Shown: positions 2,744 to 13,333 of the stretch, in pieces
How the letters are laid out: each line of letters opens with the position of its first letter
Numbering within the stretch: position 1 is the stretch's first letter
Source of the DNA: Alphaproteobacteria bacterium
GTDB lineage: Bacteria > Pseudomonadota > Alphaproteobacteria > UBA828
Length of the DNA stretch: 64,000 nucleotides
Assembly: GCA_965237415.1 (NCBI GenBank)
Contig: CBDEFM010000001.1
Span: forward strand, 480,001 to 544,000
Direction of reading: 5' to 3'
Notes under the pieces: generated by a model
What the model was told of the DNA's origin: nothing
What the model saw: only the letters and a program-made list of their open reading frames with translations
Databases searched by the model: none
Made by a program: the position numbers and the translations under genes

Positions 2744-4045
<1,302 letters not shown>

Positions 4046-6360: not shown

Positions 6361-7956
6361 CTAACGATTGAGGATCAGGTCCGACCCCTTCTCGCCGATC
6401 ATGATAGTGGGCGCGTTGGTGTTGGAGCTGGTCACGATCGGCATGATCGAGGCGTCGATCACGCGGAGCCCGTCGATGCCACGGACCCAGAGCTCCGGGT
6501 CGACGACCGCCATGTCGTCGATCCCCATCGTGCAGGTGCTGGTGGGATGATAGGCCGGCAGCGTGTATTGCCGGATATAGGCTTCGAGCGCCTCGTCGCT
6601 CCGGTCCCCGGGCGCAGGCAGGTAAAGCTCCTTGAAGTGCGGCTTGAAGGCCTTGCTCTCGAAGATCGCACGCGAAATCTTGCAGCCGTCGATCATCCGC
6701 CGCATGTCGTCCTCGTCGCCCAAGAGGTTCGAGAAGATGCGCGGCGGCTCGTTGGGATCGGCTGAGCGGAGCGTGAGCCTGCTGCGGCTCTTCGGGCGGC
6801 AGACATTGACCGGCAGAGTGACGCCGGGGCGCTCAAGCAGCTTGATTCCGTCCGGGCCGAACTCGTAGCCAGTCGGCACGAAGTGGATCTGGATGTCGGG
6901 GCGGTCCTCCTCCTCCGGCCGGGTGCGGACGAAGGCCACCTGCTGGGCGATGGGGCTCGCCGCCGGCCCCTTGCCGCGCAGCAACCAGTCGAGGCCGTGC
7001 CGCACGTAGCCCGACGGCGTGACCTCGGTGTTATAGGTGCTGATGTCGACATAGCCGGCCACCCAGGCGGCCGGATGCTCCTGCAAGTTGTTGCCGACAC
7101 CCGGCGAGTCCGCGACCACGGGGATGCCGAGCTGGGAGAGATCGTCCGCCGGCCCTATCCCTGAGCGCAGCAGGATCGCCGGCGATGCGATGGCGCCGGC
7201 GGAGAGGACGATCTCGCCGTCCGCCCTTGCCTCGTGTTTCACGCCGGCCCGGCTGTAGACGACGGCGCGCGCGCGCCCCTCCTCGAACAGCACCTTGTCC
7301 ACCCGCGCCTCGGTCTCGACATCGAGGTTTCTCCGCCCCATCACCGGCCTGAGGTAGGCGCGGGCCGTGCTGTTGCGGCGGCCGAAGCGAACCGTCCCCT
7401 GGTTGGGGCCGGCGCCCTCCTGGCGCTCGCCGTTCACGTCCGGATTGAAGGGGATGCCGAGCTCCTTTGCCGCTTCGACGAAGACGCGGCCCAGCGGATG
7501 CGGCGTCGGCACGTCGGAGACGCGGAGCGGCCCGTCGGCACCGTGATACTCGCTCGGGCCCAGGGGATTGCTCTCCATGCGCTTGAAGTAGGGCAGCACG
7601 TCGCGATAGCTCCACGCGCCGGTGTTGCCGATGAGGCGGGCCCAGCCGTCATAGTCCTCATGCTGACCGCGCAAATAGATCATGCCGTTGATGGAGCTCG
7701 ACCCGCCGAGCACCTTGCCGCCCGGCCACATGGCGTCGCGCCCGTTGAGCGAGGGGTCGGGCTCGCTCATGTACATCCAGTTGAAGCGGGGGTTCAGGAT
7801 CGCTTTGATCTCGCCGGCGGGGACCCGCAGCACCGGCGAGGTGTCGAAGCCGCCGCCTTCGAGCAGCAGGACCTTGTTCGTGCGCTCGGCGGAAAGCCGA
7901 TGCGCGAGCACGCACCCGGCCGACCCTGCGCCCACGATGATGTAGTCCCACGCCAT
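6361..7956 (-). CDS. GMC family oxidoreductase (choline dehydrogenase-like)
   Basis: [14 protein letters not shown] motif, [16 protein letters not shown] and C-terminal [12 protein letters not shown]; start moved to MAWDY. Confidence 0.93.
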
Positions 7957-8179
7957 CCTTCCCTCCGCGCGCCGGGCATGATTCGCGCGGCTAGTGTCGC
8001 AAGCCAAGGGTGGATGGGCAAAGTCATTGAATTGCGGCGAGGCGCCTTTCGCGGTTGCCATCCGCGTAGTCGACATGGCCGGACATAGTCTGCGGAAATG
8101 AGTAACGAAAGCATGGCGAATCAGCCTAGCCCCACACCTCCTCTTCGCCGTAGCCCCTGAAGTCTTCCAATTCAAAACA

Positions 8180-9493
8180 TTAGATCGGAACCTCAGGCAG
8201 GGGTTCAAGTTGAGTCTCCGACAACAGATGAAGGCCTATTACACGACGCTTGGTCTGTTCATTGCCCGCGGAACTTAGTTTGCGAGCCTCAGTTTGAAGA
8301 GCATTTATGCGACGGTCTATTTCTACATCCAACTGCTCGAACACGTGCATTGCTGTGGTGTGACGAAACGACTGAGACCAACTCCATACGATACTATGCA
8401 ACTCAACCATAGACTGATGGTATCGCCGTCGGTGCGACGATGACATGCCTTCGGCAGCCGCCTTCATCTCCCGCTTGGCGTCTTTCACCACCATGTCGAG
8501 TTTCGTCAAGAATTTTTTTCTGGCGGCCCTAGATGGCTCTAAGGAACGGCCAGAAATGCGATATCCCAAGAAATCCGTTCCGTTATGGATATTTCCATCG
8601 TCGACCTTGCCATCATTGCGAGCTTTGACGTCACGCAAGTCGTACACTTCCATATCCATGGCTTTGAGAATCGCACGAGCCGATCGGTAGGCGGACATGA
8701 CTTTGGCTTTGGACGGTCCCAAGAGAATAAAGTCGTCGATATACCGAATACAACTTATTCCTCGTTCATTCATTCTTGCATCAAAGCTGTGCAAGGCAAT
8801 GTTGCCAGCTAGTGCGGACAACGCTGAACCTTGTGCCACTCCGATATCAGGGTCAGGGAACAATTTGAATAGGTTGCGCTCCTCCAACTCCTCTCGGTTT
8901 TCGAGGTTAGTAGTCAGTGCCTCTTCAAAAAAATCGGAAAACTCCGGATCATTTACCGCAGTACCAACAAACGCGTTGACATCAGCTCTTGCAATTCTTG
9001 TGAAGAAATCCCTGATGTCTGACCGAATGAACCAATACTTGCCCGACTGTACCGCTTGATCCACCAAGGCTATGCCCTCTGGTACGCCACGACCGGCAAT
9101 CCCGCCAACGCTAGTCGGCGTCTCCATGATGCTTCGAATAGCTGGTATACCCCGCCACTGACGGTGCCTTTCAGTCGCCGGTCCTCCACAGCCTTGAAGG
9201 ACATCGAGAATAGCGCGCCGAACTATACGGTTCTCAATGGGCGCCAAGACCAACGGACGGACCCCTTTCTTGCCTTTCCCCTTAGGTGGAGCGATGCCGG
9301 TCTCGCCGGAAAACGTGAATCTATGATTCTTCAGCCGACGTTGCAGCCGCTCGAGATTATTCAGAAAGTTGTCGTCGAATTGAATGATGAGGCGTTTAGT
9401 TTTCTCGCTATCGGACTTAAGGCCACTAGTCTTGACCTTACCCCAAGCTGGATACAGCACGCCTCGGTATCGAATTTGGGCGTAGAGACCCAC
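8180..9493 (-). CDS. reverse transcriptase, group II-like (probable G2L4 class, YIDD)
   Basis: RT motifs RPLVLAPIENRIV, SDIRDFF, GVAQGSALS, RYIDDF and FLGY; GTG start with GAGG SD; visibly lower GC than the flanks; no endonuclease domain. Confidence 0.92.
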   Translation of the reverse strand: MGLYAQIRYRGVLYPAWGKVKTSGLKSDSEKTKRLIIQFDDNFLNNLERLQRRLKNHRFTFSGETGIAPPKGKGKKGVRPLVLAPIENRIVRRAILDVLQGCGGPATERHRQWRGIPAIRSIMETPTSVGGIAGRGVPEGIALVDQAVQSGKYWFIRSDIRDFFTRIARADVNAFVGTAVNDPEFSDFFEEALTTNLENREELEERNLFKLFPDPDIGVAQGSALSALAGNIALHSFDARMNERGISCIRYIDDFILLGPSKAKVMSAYRSARAILKAMDMEVYDLRDVKARNDGKVDDGNIHNGTDFLGYRISGRSLEPSRAARKKFLTKLDMVVKDAKREMKAAAEGMSSSHRRRYHQSMVELHSIVWSWSQSFRHTTAMHVFEQLDVEIDRRINALQTEARKLSSAGNEQTKRRVIGLHLLSETQLEPLPEVPI

Positions 9494-9555
9494 GGCAACC
9501 TCGTACTACTTTGGGGGCCCTATCGGCAAACCCGCCCCCGACAGAATCGCGAGGT

Positions 9556-9692
9556 TCGATCCCCAGGGCTCCGAAGGCGCTCAAGGCAGCCTGCGGGTGC
9601 GACCTGCTCCGCAGAAGCATCCGCCCTGCGGTCCCCGCTCCCAGCATAGCCGACGCTCAAGACAAGCCCGACCGCGAGAAGCGGGAGGATCA
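9556..9692. repeat. 137-bp direct repeat, RT-proximal copy
   Basis: tcgatccccagggctccg...gcgggaggatca, identical to 9923-10059. Confidence 0.97.
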
Positions 9693-9922
9693 GGCCCGAG
9701 ACGGAAAATCCGCCGGACCTGCGCGCCGGCAACTTGGCGCGTTTTTGAGAGCGCGGGTCATCTGGCAATCCTCCTGCTGGGCGACCGTATCGTTTTTGGG
9801 TCGTTCATCAAGTGGCGCCAGCGCGCCTCCGCGCCCACGGAAATATAGAAGTTGTCGACCGTCCGATAGGCCCCCATCACGGTTAGGGCTCCGGTGACGT
9901 AGACTTCCGCCGGGCGCGAAGG

Positions 9923-10059
9923 TCGATCCCCAGGGCTCCGAAGGCGCTCAAGGCAGCCTGCGGGTGCGACCTGCTCCGCAGAAGCATCCGCCCTGCGGTC
10001 CCCGCTCCCAGCATAGCCGACGCTCAAGACAAGCCCGACCGCGAGAAGCGGGAGGATCA
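9923..10059. repeat. 137-bp direct repeat, promoter-proximal copy
   Basis: Identical to 9556-9692; 230-bp spacer between the copies. Confidence 0.97.
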
Positions 10060-10067
10060 ACGCAATG

Positions 10068-10096
10068 ACTATACATCATGTCGCCCTCAACCGCAA
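10068..10096 (-). promoter_or_regulatory. sigma70-type promoter driving the repeat leader and RT
   Basis: Minus strand reads TTGCGG-N17-TATAGT; predicted TSS near 10061, at the start of the repeat. Confidence 0.65.
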
Positions 10097-10214
10097 GATA
10101 GGGTAAGGTACGGTATATATTGGGACCGAATTTGGGCGATAATTTGCTGTGCGACCGGACTATGGCGCGCGTCTACAGCCGCCACCCCCGGCCGTTACCT
10201 TTTCGGGATAGTGC

Positions 10215-12662
10215 TCAGCCCCTGACGCGCTCGGATCGGGGGTCGTAGAGGGGGCGGAGGCTGGCCTTCGTGGGGTAGCGGATGCCTGCGACCTCGATCT
10301 CGTAGCGGCCGGCGGCCACGTAGTCGTCGTCCACACCCGCCGCGTTCTCCACATAGCCGAGGCCGACCGCGCCGCCGAGGGTGTGGCCGTACATGCCTGA
10401 GCGCACATAGCCCGCGATCGCATCGTCCCGCCAGATCGGCTCGTTGTGGTAGAGCAGCGGCTCGGGGTCTTCGAGGAGGAACTGCACGAGCCGCTGGCGC
10501 ACGCCTTCCTCCCGCTGGCGCAGCAGCGCATGGCGTCCGATGAAGGGCTCGGGCTTGTCGAGCTTGACGGCGAAGCCGAGGCCGGCCTCCAGAGGCGTGT
10601 CCGCATCGGTGATGTCGTGGCCGTAGTGGCGGTAGGCCCTCTCGATCCTGAGCGAGTTCATGGCGTGCATGCCGACATGGCGGAGCCCCACGTCCTCCCC
10701 GGCGTCGACCAGCGCGTCGTAGATGCCCGCCGCGAACTCGGTCGGGATGTAGAGCTCCCATCCAAGCTCGCCCACGTAGGTGATGCGCGACGCGCGGGCG
10801 CAGGCGTAGCCAAGCTCGATCTCCCGGCTGCTGCCGAAGGGAAAGGCCTCGTTACCGAGATCGTCCGGGCTCAGAGATTGCAACAGGTCGCGCGCAAGGG
10901 GGCCCATGACGCCGAGCACGGCGAGGCCCGAGGTCACATCGGTGAGTACCGCGTGCGCGCCTTCCGGGATGTGGCGCTTGAGCCAGAGGGAATCCCGCAC
11001 CTGGAACTCGCCGGAGGTCACGATCAGATAATCGTCGTCTGCGAGCCTGGTGACGGTGAGATCGGCCTCGATGCCGCCCGCATCGTTGAGCCACTGGGTG
11101 TAGACGATGCGGCCGGGCGGCACGTCCACCTCGTTGGCGGAGACCCGGCCCAGCACCCGCGCGGCGTCGCGGCCCTGGAGGCGGAACTTGGCGAAGGAGG
11201 TCTGGTCGAGAAGGCCCACCCCGTCACGCACCGCCCGGTGCTCCTCCGCCGAACAGGCAAACCAGTTCTGGCGGCCGAAGCTGTACTCGTAGCAGGGCTC
11301 CATGCCTTGCGCCGCGTACCAGTTCGGCCGCTCCCAGCCGAAGGCCTCGCCGTGGCACGCGCCGCGCGCCGCAAGGCGATCGTGAAACGGCGAGCGGCGC
11401 ACCCCCCGCGCGGTCGCGTATTGGCGGAAGGGCCAATGGTTGTCGTAGAGCAGGCCGAGGGTCTCGCTCACCCGCTCGCGCAGATACCGCCGGTTGGTCT
11501 GGAAGGGCAGGTTGCGGCGTATATCCACGTCCCACATGTCGACGAGCGGCCGTCCGGTCTTGATGCATTCGGCCAGCACCCGGCCTGCGCCGCCGGCCGA
11601 CTGGATGCCGATGGAGTTGAACCCGGCGGCGACGTAGCAGCCGGCGAGCCCGGGCGCCTCGCCGAGATGATAGCGGTCGTCGGGCGTGAAGCTCTCGGGC
11701 CCGCAGAAGAAGGTCTGGATGCCGGCGTCGGCCAGCGCCGGCATGCGCTTCAGCGCGTGCATCAGCACCGGCTCGAAGTGCTCGTAGTCGTTGGGCAGCT
11801 GGTCGAAGCAGAAATCCTCGGGGATTCCGTCCATGCCCCAGGGCTTGGCCTCCGGCTCGAAGGCGCCGAGCAGGATCTTGCCCGCGTCCTCCTTGTAATA
11901 GGCGCAGCCGTCGTAGTCGCGCAGCACGGGCAGGTCCGGCGTCACGCCCTCGAAGGGGTCCGTCATCACGTAAAAGTGCTCGCAGGCGTGGAGCGGCACG
12001 TGGACGCCGATCGTGGCCGCAAGCTCGCGCGTCCACATGCCGGCTGACAGCACCACAGTCTCCGCCGCGATGGTGCCCTCCGAAGTCTCGACGCCGGTGA
12101 CCCGCTCGCCGTCATGGGCAATGGCGGTGACGGGGACCCCCTCGCGGATCAGTGCGCCGCCGGCCCGCGCGCCCATGGCGAGCGCCCGGGTCACGTCGAT
12201 GGGGTTGGCCTGGCCGTCGGAGGGGATGAAGATCCCGCCCACCACGTCGTCGACGGCGACCAGCGGGTAGCGATCCTTGATCTCGTCCGGGCCGAGCACG
12301 TCGACACGGAGATCGAATACCTTGGCCATGGAGGCGCTGCGCTTCAGCTCCTCGAAGCGGCCCGGCGTGGTGGCGAGGGATATCGAGCCGTTCTGCTTGA
12401 ATCCGGTCGCCTGGCCCGTCTCCGCTTCGAGGCCCGTGTAGAGCTCGGCCGTGTACTTGGCGAGCTCAGTCATCCGCTTCGAGGGGCGGAGCTGGCCGAT
12501 AAGGCCCGCGGCGTGCCAGGTGGTGCCGCAGGTGAGCTCGCGGCGCTCCAGCAGCACCACGTCGGAAACACGCGCGCGAGCTAGGTGGTAGGCAACGGAA
12601 CAACCCACCACCCCGCCGCCGACGATGACGACCCGTGCCGAGCGCGGCAGGTCCTGAGCCAT
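10215..12662 (-). CDS. GcvT-family FAD-dependent oxidoreductase (dimethylglycine/sarcosine dehydrogenase-like)
   Basis: VVIVGGGVVG, GTTWHAAG, GPESFTPD, GWERP and YVGELGWELY motifs; start MAQDLP overlaps the upstream stop. Confidence 0.93.
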   Translation of the reverse strand: MAQDLPRSARVVIVGGGVVGCSVAYHLARARVSDVVLLERRELTCGTTWHAAGLIGQLRPSKRMTELAKYTAELYTGLEAETGQATGFKQNGSISLATTPGRFEELKRSASMAKVFDLRVDVLGPDEIKDRYPLVAVDDVVGGIFIPSDGQANPIDVTRALAMGARAGGALIREGVPVTAIAHDGERVTGVETSEGTIAAETVVLSAGMWTRELAATIGVHVPLHACEHFYVMTDPFEGVTPDLPVLRDYDGCAYYKEDAGKILLGAFEPEAKPWGMDGIPEDFCFDQLPNDYEHFEPVLMHALKRMPALADAGIQTFFCGPESFTPDDRYHLGEAPGLAGCYVAAGFNSIGIQSAGGAGRVLAECIKTGRPLVDMWDVDIRRNLPFQTNRRYLRERVSETLGLLYDNHWPFRQYATARGVRRSPFHDRLAARGACHGEAFGWERPNWYAAQGMEPCYEYSFGRQNWFACSAEEHRAVRDGVGLLDQTSFAKFRLQGRDAARVLGRVSANEVDVPPGRIVYTQWLNDAGGIEADLTVTRLADDDYLIVTSGEFQVRDSLWLKRHIPEGAHAVLTDVTSGLAVLGVMGPLARDLLQSLSPDDLGNEAFPFGSSREIELGYACARASRITYVGELGWELYIPTEFAAGIYDALVDAGEDVGLRHVGMHAMNSLRIERAYRHYGHDITDADTPLEAGLGFAVKLDKPEPFIGRHALLRQREEGVRQRLVQFLLEDPEPLLYHNEPIWRDDAIAGYVRSGMYGHTLGGAVGLGYVENAAGVDDDYVAAGRYEIEVAGIRYPTKASLRPLYDPRSERVRG

Positions 12663-13333
12663 CAGGAGCTCCCCGCCGCGTGTGCCGGCGCGAGTTGCCT
12701 GATCTCGCTGAGCGCCGATTCGAGGTCGCGCACCTCGGCCCAGCCGACCCGCATCATCTCGATCGCGGGCTCGTGCAGGTGCGGCAGCGTCGTCCCCGTG
12801 CACTCCTCGATCACGATGGGCTTGAAGTCGCGGAACATCGCGTCCTTCGAGGTCGCCGCGACGCATTGATTGGTGAGCACGCCTGTCATCAGCACCGTCT
12901 CCGCGCGCAAGCCCCGGAGGACCACCTCAAGATCGGTGCCGTAGAAGGCGCTGAGCCGCGTCTTCGCGACATACCAGTCGTCCGGTTGGGGGCTGAGGTC
13001 CGCCAGCACCTCCCAGCCCCAGGTCTCGCGCCTGAGGCCGCCCTCTGCAAGAAAGGGCCGGAGCTGCATGAACGGCCCGCCGTCCTCGACACCCCTGATG
13101 CCGTGGCGGGTCCAGACGATGGGGATTCCCTTCGTTCGCGCAGCCGCAAGCAGAGCCTTCAGCGGCTCGATGCAGCGCTGCATGTGGCCGATGTCGATGC
13201 CCTGCGCCGCATACCAGCCGTCTGGATGGAGAAAGTCGTTCTGCGCGTCGATTACGACGAGCGCCGTGCCCCCCGGCACCAGGTCCCAGTGCGCCGCCTC
13301 GAAGGGGGCGGCCTGCCTCTCTTCTCCCGTCAT
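12662..13333 (-). CDS. isochorismatase family cysteine hydrolase
   Basis: ALVVIDAQNDF, KTRLSAFYGT and GVLTNQCV motifs. Confidence 0.9.
   Translation of the reverse strand: MTGEERQAAPFEAAHWDLVPGGTALVVIDAQNDFLHPDGWYAAQGIDIGHMQRCIEPLKALLAAARTKGIPIVWTRHGIRGVEDGGPFMQLRPFLAEGGLRRETWGWEVLADLSPQPDDWYVAKTRLSAFYGTDLEVVLRGLRAETVLMTGVLTNQCVAATSKDAMFRDFKPIVIEECTGTTLPHLHEPAIEMMRVGWAEVRDLESALSEIRQLAPAHAAGSS

Follow-up and report, generated by a model that had tools for sequence, protein, structure and literature searches.

Comparative analysis of the twin-repeat leader of a G2L4 reverse transcriptase gene: a conserved structured RNA and candidate partner of the enzyme

To our knowledge the G2L4 enzymes are the sole reverse transcriptases (RTs) of the group II intron-like type in bacteria with a demonstrated cellular job, which is break repair, and their structures serve as models for the domestication of retroelement RTs. 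The RT of a group II intron binds its own intron RNA and autoregulates translation through the DIVa site. Retroviral RNA has terminal R repeats, one of them at the transcript start, that permit strand transfer. We know of no cDNA product, effector or defence phenotype for the G2L4 type of locus. The published G2L4 RT is a stable homodimer formed via its N-terminal extension and thumb, and microhomology-mediated break repair and translesion synthesis have been shown for the Pseudomonas aeruginosa enzyme. Park et al. 2022 include YIDD instead of YADD in the definition of the family and describe two direct repeats of ~140 nt (LDRs), with a ~240-nt spacer, within 1 kb upstream of the RT. They put this layout in ~70% of G2L4 loci and mention integrase genes near many G2L4 loci, and they report 20-fold higher RNA reads over the LDRs. 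The RT without LDRs already raises the survival of E. coli after DNA damage in their experiments, so the RNA is not needed for that activity. Co-expression of the LDRs modulated survival with the protein level unchanged. They give the LDRs no function.

The first-pass annotation of the locus described here implied that it was highly novel. That view cannot be kept, since the layout, the prevalence of ~70% and the 20-fold excess of RNA over the repeats are already in Park et al. 2022; the locus belongs to an already known G2L4 kind. The structure or role of the LDRs is absent from the searchable literature, where the long direct repeats of G2L4 are discussed in the 2022 preprint only; the structural G2L4 papers and a 2026 imaging paper make no mention of them. 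What is new here is the conservation of the leader and its lack of codon periodicity, the folds of its domains, its long-range helices, the concerted evolution of the repeats, the recurrent single-domain forms and the depth in metatranscriptomes.

The same annotation had seen an AT-richer insert between two metabolic genes, holding a 437-aa RT with YIDD and FLGY and with neither an endonuclease domain nor a partner gene, and in these respects we agree with it. In the window, by which we mean the whole 64,000-nt stretch of DNA analysed, a low-GC insert of ~2.2 kb carries the RT gene and the repeats (Table 1). GC is 0.47-0.58 in the RT gene against 0.64-0.72 in the flanks, and the genes on either side are, by Pfam, a DAO/GCV_T dehydrogenase and a GMC oxidoreductase. 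No integrase was found by Pfam among the genes near the RT. The RT gene starts with GTG and its translation contains RYIDDF and DFLGY. It is free-standing: Pfam gives RVT_1 alone in the protein, with no fused domain, and metabolic genes as neighbours, so that an endonuclease domain and a partner gene are both absent, and Rfam gives no intron RNA in positions 7000-11500. The intergenic insertion site is variable among relatives and is empty in one of them, G010; comparison with this sole empty site, in a genome ~88% identical, yielded neither exact insert ends nor a definable target duplication. No conserved element lies 3' of the RT stop in the 15 near-clade loci compared. The module was acquired horizontally into an intergenic site.

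Table 1. Features of the locus, in window coordinates.
Feature	Position	Strand	Remark
Tail of inserted DNA past RT stop	8026..8179	(-)	unconserved among loci; homology with relative's empty site resumes near 8025
RT, 437 aa	8180..9493	(-)	RVT_1; matches G2L4 RT of PDB 9d5x/9d4s
RT 5' UTR	9494..9555	(-)	RNA contig 9228-9585 bridges repeat 2, UTR and RT gene
Shine-Dalgarno GAGG	9502-9499	(-)	in 5' UTR
Strand pB CCGATAGG	9526-9519	(-)	in 5' UTR, in loop of local hairpin; predicted to pair with sB (helix B)
Strand pA	9546-9537	(-)	in 5' UTR; predicted to pair with sA (helix A)
Repeat 2 (LDR2), 137 nt	9556..9692	(-)	covariance-model match 9555-9694, 131.3 bits; domain as in repeat 1
Spacer, 230 nt	9693..9922	(-)	alignments; conserved across phyla
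Hairpin CGCGCC/GGCGCG	9741-9736 with 9727-9722	(-)	in spacer; covariation
Motif TTGATG-N16-TACGGT	9811-9784	(-)	in spacer; alignments
Strand sB CCTATCGG	9870-9863	(-)	in spacer; predicted long-range helix B with pB
Strand sA	9914-9905	(-)	in spacer; predicted long-range helix A with pA
Repeat 1 (LDR1), 137 nt	9923..10059	(-)	covariance-model match 9922-10061, 127.4 bits
Promoter-like site P1	10068..10096	(-)	-35 TTGCGG 10096-10091, 17-nt spacer, -10 TATAGT 10073-10068

The RT is a member of the G2L4 group II intron-like family. YIDD replaces YADD at the active site (CIRYIDDFILLG in the translation), and the assignment to G2L4 first made from this motif is confirmed by a full-length match to the solved P. 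aeruginosa RT 9d5x_A (E 1.9e-65, residues 3-428 on 4-410). The next matches are to a Cas6-RT-Cas1 protein (E 4.2e-12) and a group II RT (E 2.4e-9), and the RT shares 33% identity with the Pseudomonas fluorescens locus L047. Other identities were rejected. TIGR04416 (group II intron RT) matches in part, at 109.6 bits for a cut-off of 300, and Rfam has no group II RNA family here, so this is not the RT or maturase of a mobile group II intron. A retron is ruled out by Retron St85 at 35.1 bits against 235 and the lack of an msr family by Rfam, and a DRT2/UG-Abi defence RT by Drt2 at 49.3 against 390, Drt3a at 38.1 against 200 and Drt4 at 18.1 against 450. PADLOC matches a generic RT model (2e-31) and RT_UG17 (6e-29), both partially and both with models that have no cut-off.

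The enzyme may also dimerize as its relative does. Two copies modelled together score 0.75, the best of three controls 0.00, and the mark used is passed by 20/30 solved homodimers and by 1/23 single chains; a like dimer has already been solved, so this pass may reflect likeness only. The modelled dimer has at least 90% contact agreement between runs and a pLDDT of 86, with residues 10, 14-15 and 354-437 at the interface. By eye, R12 and R19, two of the three mutated N-terminal residues at the published interface, align with glycines here.

Upstream of the RT gene a direct repeat of 145 nt (9548-9692 and 9915-10059) recurs at a spacing of 367 nt with 99% identity. It contains the two exactly identical 137-nt copies, separated by 230 nt, that the first-pass annotation had pointed out, and 62 nt lie between the end of repeat 2 and the GTG. 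There are two copies in the 4.75-Mb genome, both at the RT locus, so the repeat is neither dispersed nor due to chance. The duplication is real and not an assembly artefact, since the geometry recurs in 52 other independent assemblies. The homologues share the architecture as well: the twin layout is canonical in 53/73 assessable loci, and in those 53, drawn from several phyla, the ~570-nt leader is conserved in full. A detectable twin is missing in 16 of the 73, and at least six loci retain a single domain. Model R1 misses even true twins (L047, L053, L061), and the distant loci without an R1 match (L030, L039, L042, L055, L076-L078, L080) may hold diverged domains. The twin form is on both main branches of the RT tree, where eight single-domain rows require seven changes; single-domain forms arose repeatedly. 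The two repeats evolve in concert, identical in each locus and diverged between loci. In 52/53 loci the closest relative of a repeat is the other copy of the same locus, and the two copies of a locus have a median identity of 99.2%, whereas the best foreign copy reaches 79.2%.

The alignments show that the leader forms a single conserved and structured RNA of the RT-sense strand, in which a conserved spacer separates two identical three-way-junction domains, the published LDRs. The fold of each repeat consists of a closing stem and three hairpins, with 52 pairs in the consensus, and the covariance model finds 68/68 matches on the RT-sense strand, at both expected positions. Of the cells in the repeat-domain alignment 90.6% are paired, whereas shuffling gives 74.1% and sliding 42-49%. 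Double changes occur at 48/52 pairs, and the observed values were reached in 0/500 shuffles. Two covarying long-range helices, A and B, join the stretch just 3' of repeat 1 to the stretch just 3' of repeat 2. For these, a sequence-only alignment of 53 loci gives 96.8% paired against 81.6% shuffled and 24-46% slid, with double changes at 13/14 pairs. A long-range partner from the same locus pairs better than a foreign one (-24.1 against -18.9 and -30.7 against -24.9 kcal/mol), and this difference is absent for mismatched segment pairs, used as a control. The two helices cross, so either a pseudoknot or alternative states would be needed. In the near clade compensatory changes occur in the local hairpin that follows repeat 2; over the 53 loci it shows only 3-4 mostly invariant G-C pairs, and it is, on this comparative evidence, weaker than helices A and B.

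Leader conservation exceeds that of the third positions of the RT gene. In the RT gene the diversity at codon positions 1/2/3 amounts to.32/.24/.64, while in three clades it stays flat across LDR1, the spacer and LDR2. Rfam has no match at E up to 1 in positions 7000-11500, and none reaches gathering score in 130 kb from 15 other G2L4 loci. Single-sequence folding is no better than shuffles for the whole leader on both strands (z -0.78, -0.95) or for one repeat (-0.27, +0.45); folding energy by itself is uninformative in such a GC-rich leader.

The promoter motif TTGCGG-N17-TATAGT that had been proposed for the locus is present and its position is conserved: TTGNNN-N16-18-TANNNN with its end -2 to 25 nt ahead of repeat 1 occurs in 35/51 twin loci (those with enough upstream sequence, two of the 53 being cut) against 16/880 control windows. 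A stricter consensus scan of 7900-10400 did not call it, and found no promoter and no terminator-like site. P1 is thus supported by comparative position and not by the consensus scan. The sequence upstream of P1 is unconserved in the near-clade alignment, and the start predicted from P1, ~10061, falls at the first bases of repeat 1. RNA contigs give no cover over 10060-10238, missing cover being weak evidence.

Metatranscriptome contigs cover the leader more deeply than the RT gene. Depth is 38.6 on leader contigs and 0.8-6.2 on RT-gene contigs in run X1, and 16-39 and 3-7 in run X2; the ratio of ~4-10x comes from contig depth, a poor and strandless measure of expression. Leader-only RNA contigs come from two further studies, and one contig runs from repeat 2 through the UTR into the RT gene (Table 1). 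Uncovered stretches, such as 9298-9579 in X1 or the RT gene in X5 and X10, are no evidence of absence. With covariation on the RT sense, no coding signature, a conserved promoter position at the 5' edge and RNA contigs that include this bridge, the earlier claim of a co-transcribed structured RNA is supported.

What does this RNA do? Most likely, we infer, it is a cognate RNA of the dimeric RT and binds or regulates it. In full, the conserved structured leader would be the cognate partner of the RT, its twin domains docking the homodimer and gating activity and/or translation, and we give this a probability of about 0.55. Helices A and B would hold the two identical domains together and thereby present two equivalent docking sites to the G2L4 homodimer. 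Binding of the RT to its leader would then gate RT activity and/or RT translation, like group II intron RNA with its own RT. The enzymatic job in this scheme, microhomology-mediated break repair and translesion synthesis, is borrowed from the P. aeruginosa work. We count against a partner role the survival of E. coli raised by the RT without LDRs, the 16/73 loci without a detectable twin, the single-domain loci (at least six), the crossing helices, the glycines in place of R12 and R19, the folding z-scores and the limits of contig depth.

A bolder version, which we offer tentatively, is that G2L4 enzymes, instead of being free-standing repair polymerases, belong to two-part RT-RNA systems. A single-chain, pseudo-two-fold RNA would dock the homodimer, one domain per protomer. 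It might keep the enzyme inactive, bring it to its site of action, or serve as a terminally redundant template in cDNA synthesis by strand transfer, an activity that would also keep the copies identical. The term pseudo-two-fold reflects the fact that the predicted strands of helix A each carry one identical domain at the 5' end.

The leader could instead work as a 5' UTR purely in cis, a riboregulator or attenuator by which the transcription or translation of the RT is set in response to a signal or to a protein that is not the RT. Termination or processing downstream of repeat 2 would then give the abundant short RNA as a by-product. Helix B and its hairpin do stop ~17 nt short of the Shine-Dalgarno site, and pA can pair with sA or locally, so alternative pairings are possible. 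In run X2 depth is 16-22 across the spacer and falls to 4.07 in the contig beginning where repeat 2 ends. However, this explanation leaves two concertedly kept identical domains unexplained, the scan of 7900-10400 has no terminator-like site to offer, and LDR co-expression left the RT protein level unchanged in Park et al. 2022. We consider it improbable, though it fares best among the rivals.

A poorer prospect still is a templating role for the leader, of the kind seen in retrons, DRT2 and DRT9. The predicted transcript begins with repeat 1, so a cDNA reaching the 5' end could transfer to repeat 2 as in retroviral R, giving a cDNA of repeated repeat-plus-spacer units, and recombination of this cDNA into the genome would keep the copies identical. 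The coincidence of the predicted start with the start of repeat 1 fits this, as does concerted evolution, and the reported layout of DRT2 and DRT9 likewise combines an RT with an ncRNA that lies upstream and has its own promoter. There are also spacer-repeat-spacer RNA contigs, one of 397 nt (= 367 + 30) in X5 and a similar one of 311 nt in X10. But a k=31 graph of a linear RNA with two identical 137-nt repeats yields such contigs, so they are no proof. Gene conversion between repeats 230 nt apart accounts equally well for concerted evolution, there is no known priming site or cDNA, and the covariation keeps G-U pairs of the RNA strand, which fits a folded functional RNA. We had also considered circular or concatemeric RNA or cDNA, from the 397-nt contigs and from joints that go back 367 nt, and rejected it; a cycle through the 137-nt repeat is expected in the k=31 graph.

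A role of the repeats at the DNA level, as sites of recombination or mobility for the island, is very unlikely, and so is an assembly artefact. Park et al. 2022 do place integrase genes near many G2L4 loci, and the module sits in a variable intergenic site. Against this, the covariation is strand-specific because of the G-U pairs, all 68 model matches are on the RT-sense strand, no integrase is near this locus, and both repeats are on one flank of an RT with no conservation 3' of it, while an artefact would not repeat its geometry in 52 other assemblies. Least credible of all is that the leader encodes small proteins (an 82-aa ORF at 9520-9768 and a 100-aa ORF at 9758-10060): a matching 'MQKRA...' ORF that includes a hydrophobic stretch is found in many loci, and the frame is open through repeat 2 in many loci of several clades, but GC-rich conserved stems seldom contain stop codons, the ATG is missing at this locus, the conserved ATGCAAAAACGTGCC is a hairpin arm with compensatory changes, and the flat codon-position diversity, with a third-position excess in 0/3 clades and a clear one in the adjacent RT gene, speaks against these ORFs.

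The repeats have been noted since 2022. A comparative model made of domain folds, two compensatory long-range helices, concerted evolution and recurrent single-domain derivatives turns the question of the LDRs into defined mutants and binding tests. If the RNA is the partner of the RT, G2L4 would be a further RT-ncRNA pair beside retrons and DRT systems, and published biochemistry obtained in the absence of the RNA would need revisiting. If it is merely a 5' UTR regulator, the locus is ordinary.

The locus resembles several known systems in part. Like a retroviral R repeat, its direct repeat would begin at the predicted first transcript base and recur downstream, with copies identical per element; unlike R, both copies are upstream of the RT gene, and there are no LTRs and no primer-binding site. 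With retrons, DRT2 and DRT9 it shares a solitary RT, a conserved structured ncRNA just upstream with its own promoter, and an RNA more abundant than the RT mRNA, but its RT falls outside those clades (Drt2 49 against 390 bits, St85 35 against 235). The group II intron RTs are the closest class of relatives outside G2L4, with the partial TIGR04416 match. Here too a structured RNA lies directly upstream and overlaps the region of the RT translation start, but it is built of two repeated three-way junctions and not of domains I-VI, and no Rfam group II domain is present at this locus or in 15 others. Closest is the G2L4 locus of P. aeruginosa AZPAE12409 (Park, Mohr, Yao, Russell, Lambowitz 2022; structures 9d5x/9d4s). 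The RT here is divergent in sequence from that one, its host is GC-rich and alphaproteobacterium-like, and no integrase is nearby. The two loci have in common a YIDD RT alignable over its full length, two direct repeats of ~140 nt with a ~240-nt spacer followed by the RT in a low-GC island, and a higher level of RNA reads at the repeats than in the RT gene.

The leader of this element, with its two repeats and their spacer, is established as a structured RNA with twin domains; it is conserved and abundant, and it runs on physically into the translation start region of the reverse transcriptase (RT). The RT itself is, judged by its sequence, a G2L4 RT. Its best matches among all PDB chains are 9d5x and 9d4s ('Group II intron-like 4 reverse transcriptase', E 1.9e-65), which align residues 3-428 with 4-410 of the G2L4 structures. 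The next matches are Cas6-RT-Cas1 at 4e-12 and group II intron RTs at 2e-9, and the G2L4 assignment of the first-pass annotation stands. The translation carries RYIDDF and DFLGY, which contain the YIDD and FLGY it had described, and RVT_1 is the sole Pfam domain (E 2.1e-11), in agreement with its reading of an RT lacking an endonuclease domain. The group II maturase model matches only in part (109.6 bits vs a cut-off of 300), the scores for Drt2, Drt3a, Drt4 and the retron models fall well short of their cut-offs, PADLOC returns partial matches alone (generic RT and RT_UG17), and no Rfam family, the domains of group II introns among them, matches window 7000-11500 up to E 1. The published G2L4 RT is a stable homodimer held by the N-terminal extension and thumb. 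A two-copy structure prediction for the RT in the window puts the interface at residues 10, 14-15 and 354-437, with pLDDT 86 and contact agreement of at least 90%. It scores 0.75 (best of three controls 0.00), a mark that 20 of 30 solved homodimers reach, as does 1 of 23 single chains, and may show likeness only, because a like dimer has already been solved.

Features of the G2L4 element and its surroundings in the window
Feature	Position	Strand	Remark
RT ORF	8180-9493	minus	437 aa, GTG start
Direct repeat, two copies	9548-9692 and 9915-10059	minus (sense)	145 nt, 99% identical, spaced 367 nt; upstream of RT
Identical repeat core	9556-9692 (repeat 2) and 9923-10059 (repeat 1)		137 nt
Promoter-like TTGCGG-N17-TATAGT	10096-10068	minus	
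Spacer motif TTGATG-N16-TACGGT	9784-9811	minus	inside spacer
Helix A	9914-9905 with 9546-9537		stretches directly 3' of repeat 1 and of repeat 2
Helix B	9870-9863 with 9526-9519		CCTATCGG (a motif in the spacer) with CCGATAGG (loop of hairpin preceding RT)
Open frame, 82 aa	9520-9768	minus	
Open frame, 100 aa	9758-10060	minus	
DAO/GCV_T dehydrogenase	10215-12866		flanking gene
GMC oxidoreductase			flanking gene, other side of insert

The element had been described as an AT-richer insert between two metabolic genes, and this is what we find: GC content is 0.47-0.58 over the RT gene vs 0.64-0.72 in the flanks. The DAO/GCV_T and GMC oxidoreductase genes adjoin each other in relatives, therefore the insert in the window is approximately 8026-10214. 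The site is empty in one related genome (G010, 62% complete), with 73 nt between the flanking genes (L087:1424-1498), and four relatives (L084, L085, L088, L091) have a different insert of about 1 kb there. The one examined of these four (L084:606-1436, genome G004) encodes a toxin-antitoxin-like pair made up of a DUF4258 protein (E 5e-10) with an HTH_3 protein. The contents of this intergenic site differ by genome, and it has the look of a hot spot where small mobile cargo inserts. The G2L4 element is sporadic, since a search of 40 relatives of the window genome (20 of the same genus) gave no repeat domain and no close RT; the two RT matches there are both distant and one is broken. Nothing is conserved 3' of the RT stop in 15 near-clade loci. 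The conserved unit consists of the putative promoter, the leader and the RT.

Within the window the repeat layout is as the first-pass annotation had it, with a 230-nt spacer between the identical cores and 62 nt from the core of repeat 2 to the RT start codon; its observations were right in every checkable particular, the promoter call being qualified below. The 4.75-Mb genome holds these two copies and none beyond the leader. Comparison of the upstream regions of homologs, which it had proposed, shows the architecture to be widespread. We scanned one genome per species; 124 of 140 candidate stretches encode a relative, giving 80 loci, or 81 with the window, of which 8 could not be classified, their upstream sequence being shorter than 400 nt. 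A canonical twin, two repeat copies upstream of the RT, is present in 53 of the 73 assessed loci, with repeats of 95-148 nt (median 130), a period of 334-424 (median 353) and the proximal repeat ending 49-102 nt before the RT. Two loci are variants, L016 (Rhodopseudomonas faecalis, 3230-3930) with three domain copies and L061 (upstream 1 kb) with two copies spaced 772 nt; two are ambiguous (L053, L064), and 16 have no detectable pair. Among the hosts are Alpha-, Beta- and Gammaproteobacteria, Nitrospira and Acidobacteriota. The locus of Pseudomonas fluorescens HK44 (L047, upstream 650 nt) also departs from the twin plan, as BLAST identity between its copies is only 87% and the period is 424. 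Counted from where the match begins, the RT frame ends early, after 59, 106 and 21 codons in L018 (4001-4180), L046 and L077, and the twin repeats are intact in L018 (98%) and L046 (99%); these three may be RT pseudogenes keeping their leader, frameshifts or sequencing errors.

The consensus fold of the repeat (RNAalifold, 15 near-clade repeats) has 52 pairs, arranged as three hairpins within a closing stem; G-U pairs are numerous and the loops vary. A covariance model built from those repeats, a check suggested at first pass, gives 68 matches (E up to 1) across the window and 80 loci, every one of them RT-sense and lying where one of the two repeats is expected. Standard pairs fill 90.6% of cells in these 68 rows vs 74.1% when shuffled and 42-49% when partners are slid, 48 of 52 pairs have changes on both sides, and none of 500 shuffles reaches the observed value, in an alignment that was fitted to the model, so that the structure is favoured, and that counts both copies per locus. 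Two long-range helices, A and B, pair stretches of the spacer with stretches between repeat 2 and the RT. Their sequences are wholly different between clades and their complementarity is kept. With 53 loci aligned by plain MAFFT, in the same alignment from which the 14 helix pairs were picked, 96.8% of cells are standard-paired vs 81.6% shuffled and 24-46% slid, and 13 of 14 pairs show double-sided changes. Helix B alone reaches 98.6%, and one of its pairs is AU in 27 loci and GC in 26. Duplex energies, which need no alignment, agree: own partners give -24.1 vs -18.9 kcal/mol for foreign ones in helix A and -30.7 vs -24.9 in helix B, and mismatched segment combinations show no difference between own and foreign. 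The helices cross, therefore they form a pseudoknot or alternative states. The G-U pairs show that it is the RT-sense RNA that carries the domain fold and helices.

The promoter called at first pass is present as sequence, whereas a stricter consensus scan gave no call. A TTGNNN-N16-18-TANNNN motif ending -2 to 25 nt before repeat 1 occurs in 35 of 51 assessable twin loci vs 16 of 880 control windows, and conservation ends just upstream of it. From its position, transcription in the window would therefore start at about 10061, in the first bases of repeat 1. We mapped contigs from public metatranscriptomes to window 7700-10500. Depth in run X1 is 38.6 for the leader contig, 0.8-6.2 for RT-gene contigs and 2.2-2.6 for flanks, and in run X2 it is 39.3 for the repeat and 16-22 for the spacer, these contigs being strandless, a poor gauge of level and from libraries that may contain DNA. 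An X2 contig at 9228-9585 (depth 4.07) runs from repeat 2 through the UTR into the RT gene; with the RT-sense covariation and the conserved 5' promoter motif it upholds the idea of a co-transcribed structured leader. Two other studies (X5, X10) yield leader-only contigs (repeat and spacer, 9556-9922) with 0 or 1 differences from the window; flank contigs differ at 4-10 positions in X5, and X10 has none. This suggests the same element in related but non-identical hosts, or contigs mixing strains. In the spacer motif the TTG and the T of TA are invariant across 53 loci from several phyla, and the A-run between is nearly so. One possible reading of it is a second promoter, internal to the leader, from which the RT mRNA would start, and another is an RNA motif that stays single-stranded; X2 contigs show no depth increase downstream of it.

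The two repeats evolve in concert. Repeat 1 is closest to its own repeat 2 in 52 of 53 loci and tied in the other, and median identity is 99.2% within a locus vs 79.2% to the best foreign copy. Among the 16 pairless loci, an unfiltered run of the covariance model detects one domain, in the proximal position, at E <0.02 in six (L034, L035, L032, L044, L059, L066) and weakly in two (L058, L024). All eight lack the spacer motif, and in the six a promoter-like motif lies immediately 5' of the domain. This arrangement is what recombination between the two repeats would leave. On a quick, unrooted maximum-likelihood tree of 77 RTs (truncated ORFs L018, L046, L065 and L077 excluded) the twin form occurs in both main branches, and the eight single-domain rows need 7 changes, most adjoining twin loci. 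The simplest reading of this tree is recurrent loss from a twin ancestor, which would imply selection for keeping two copies.

The G2L4 architecture with long direct repeats (LDRs) and its transcription is already published. The 2022 preprint reports a low-GC G2L4 region in P. aeruginosa, 20-fold higher RNA reads over the LDRs, the direction our contig depths also take, LDR co-expression that 'modulated' survival after H2O2 or phleomycin at the same RT protein level, and an RT functional alone in E. coli (Park et al. 2022, bioRxiv 10.1101/2022.03.14.484287). It is the only work that a full-text literature search returns for G2L4 together with long direct repeats; 'direct repeat', 'LDR' and 'ncRNA' are all absent from the texts of the 2025 structure paper (preprint and PNAS) and of the one in Nature Communications (2026), and searchable G2L4 papers give the LDRs no structure or function. 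The comparative structure, long-range pairing, concerted evolution and recurrent single-domain derivatives appear to be new, and they make LDR function directly testable.

What does the leader do? A 5' UTR regulator that works independently of the RT is an unlikely answer, yet the best of the alternatives. That the leader is a template RNA with R-like strand transfer is more doubtful again. Repeats acting at the DNA level are highly improbable and disfavoured by the data. Small proteins encoded in the leader are the least credible of all: long open frames do cross both repeats, and many loci share an 'MQKRA...' ORF that includes a hydrophobic stretch, but repeat 1, spacer and repeat 2 have no consistent third-position excess in three clades. 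Diversity at codon positions 1/2/3 of the RT gene is.32/.24/.64 in the near clade,.35/.26/.68 in the sphingomonad clade and.36/.28/.67 in the acidobacterial clade, compared with.19/.25/.25 for repeat 2 and.27/.34/.35 for the spacer in the near clade, and RT third positions vary more than any leader part. Compensatory changes mark the hairpin in which the conserved ATGCAAAAACGTGCC forms one arm. We reject these ORFs as proteins, and gene callers are likely to mis-annotate them as hypothetical proteins because they are without a codon-position signature.

We favor, as somewhat more likely than not, a leader that would bind its own RT. The activity of the RT alone in E. coli and the loci with one domain or none count against a strict need for the leader RNA. 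At the 5' end of either strand of helix A sits a copy of the same domain, a pseudo-two-fold arrangement, and in the simplest model each domain would dock one protomer of the RT homodimer. Such binding may gate RT activity, translation or both. Group II intron RNA does this for its own RT, and the G2L4 leader may be alike.
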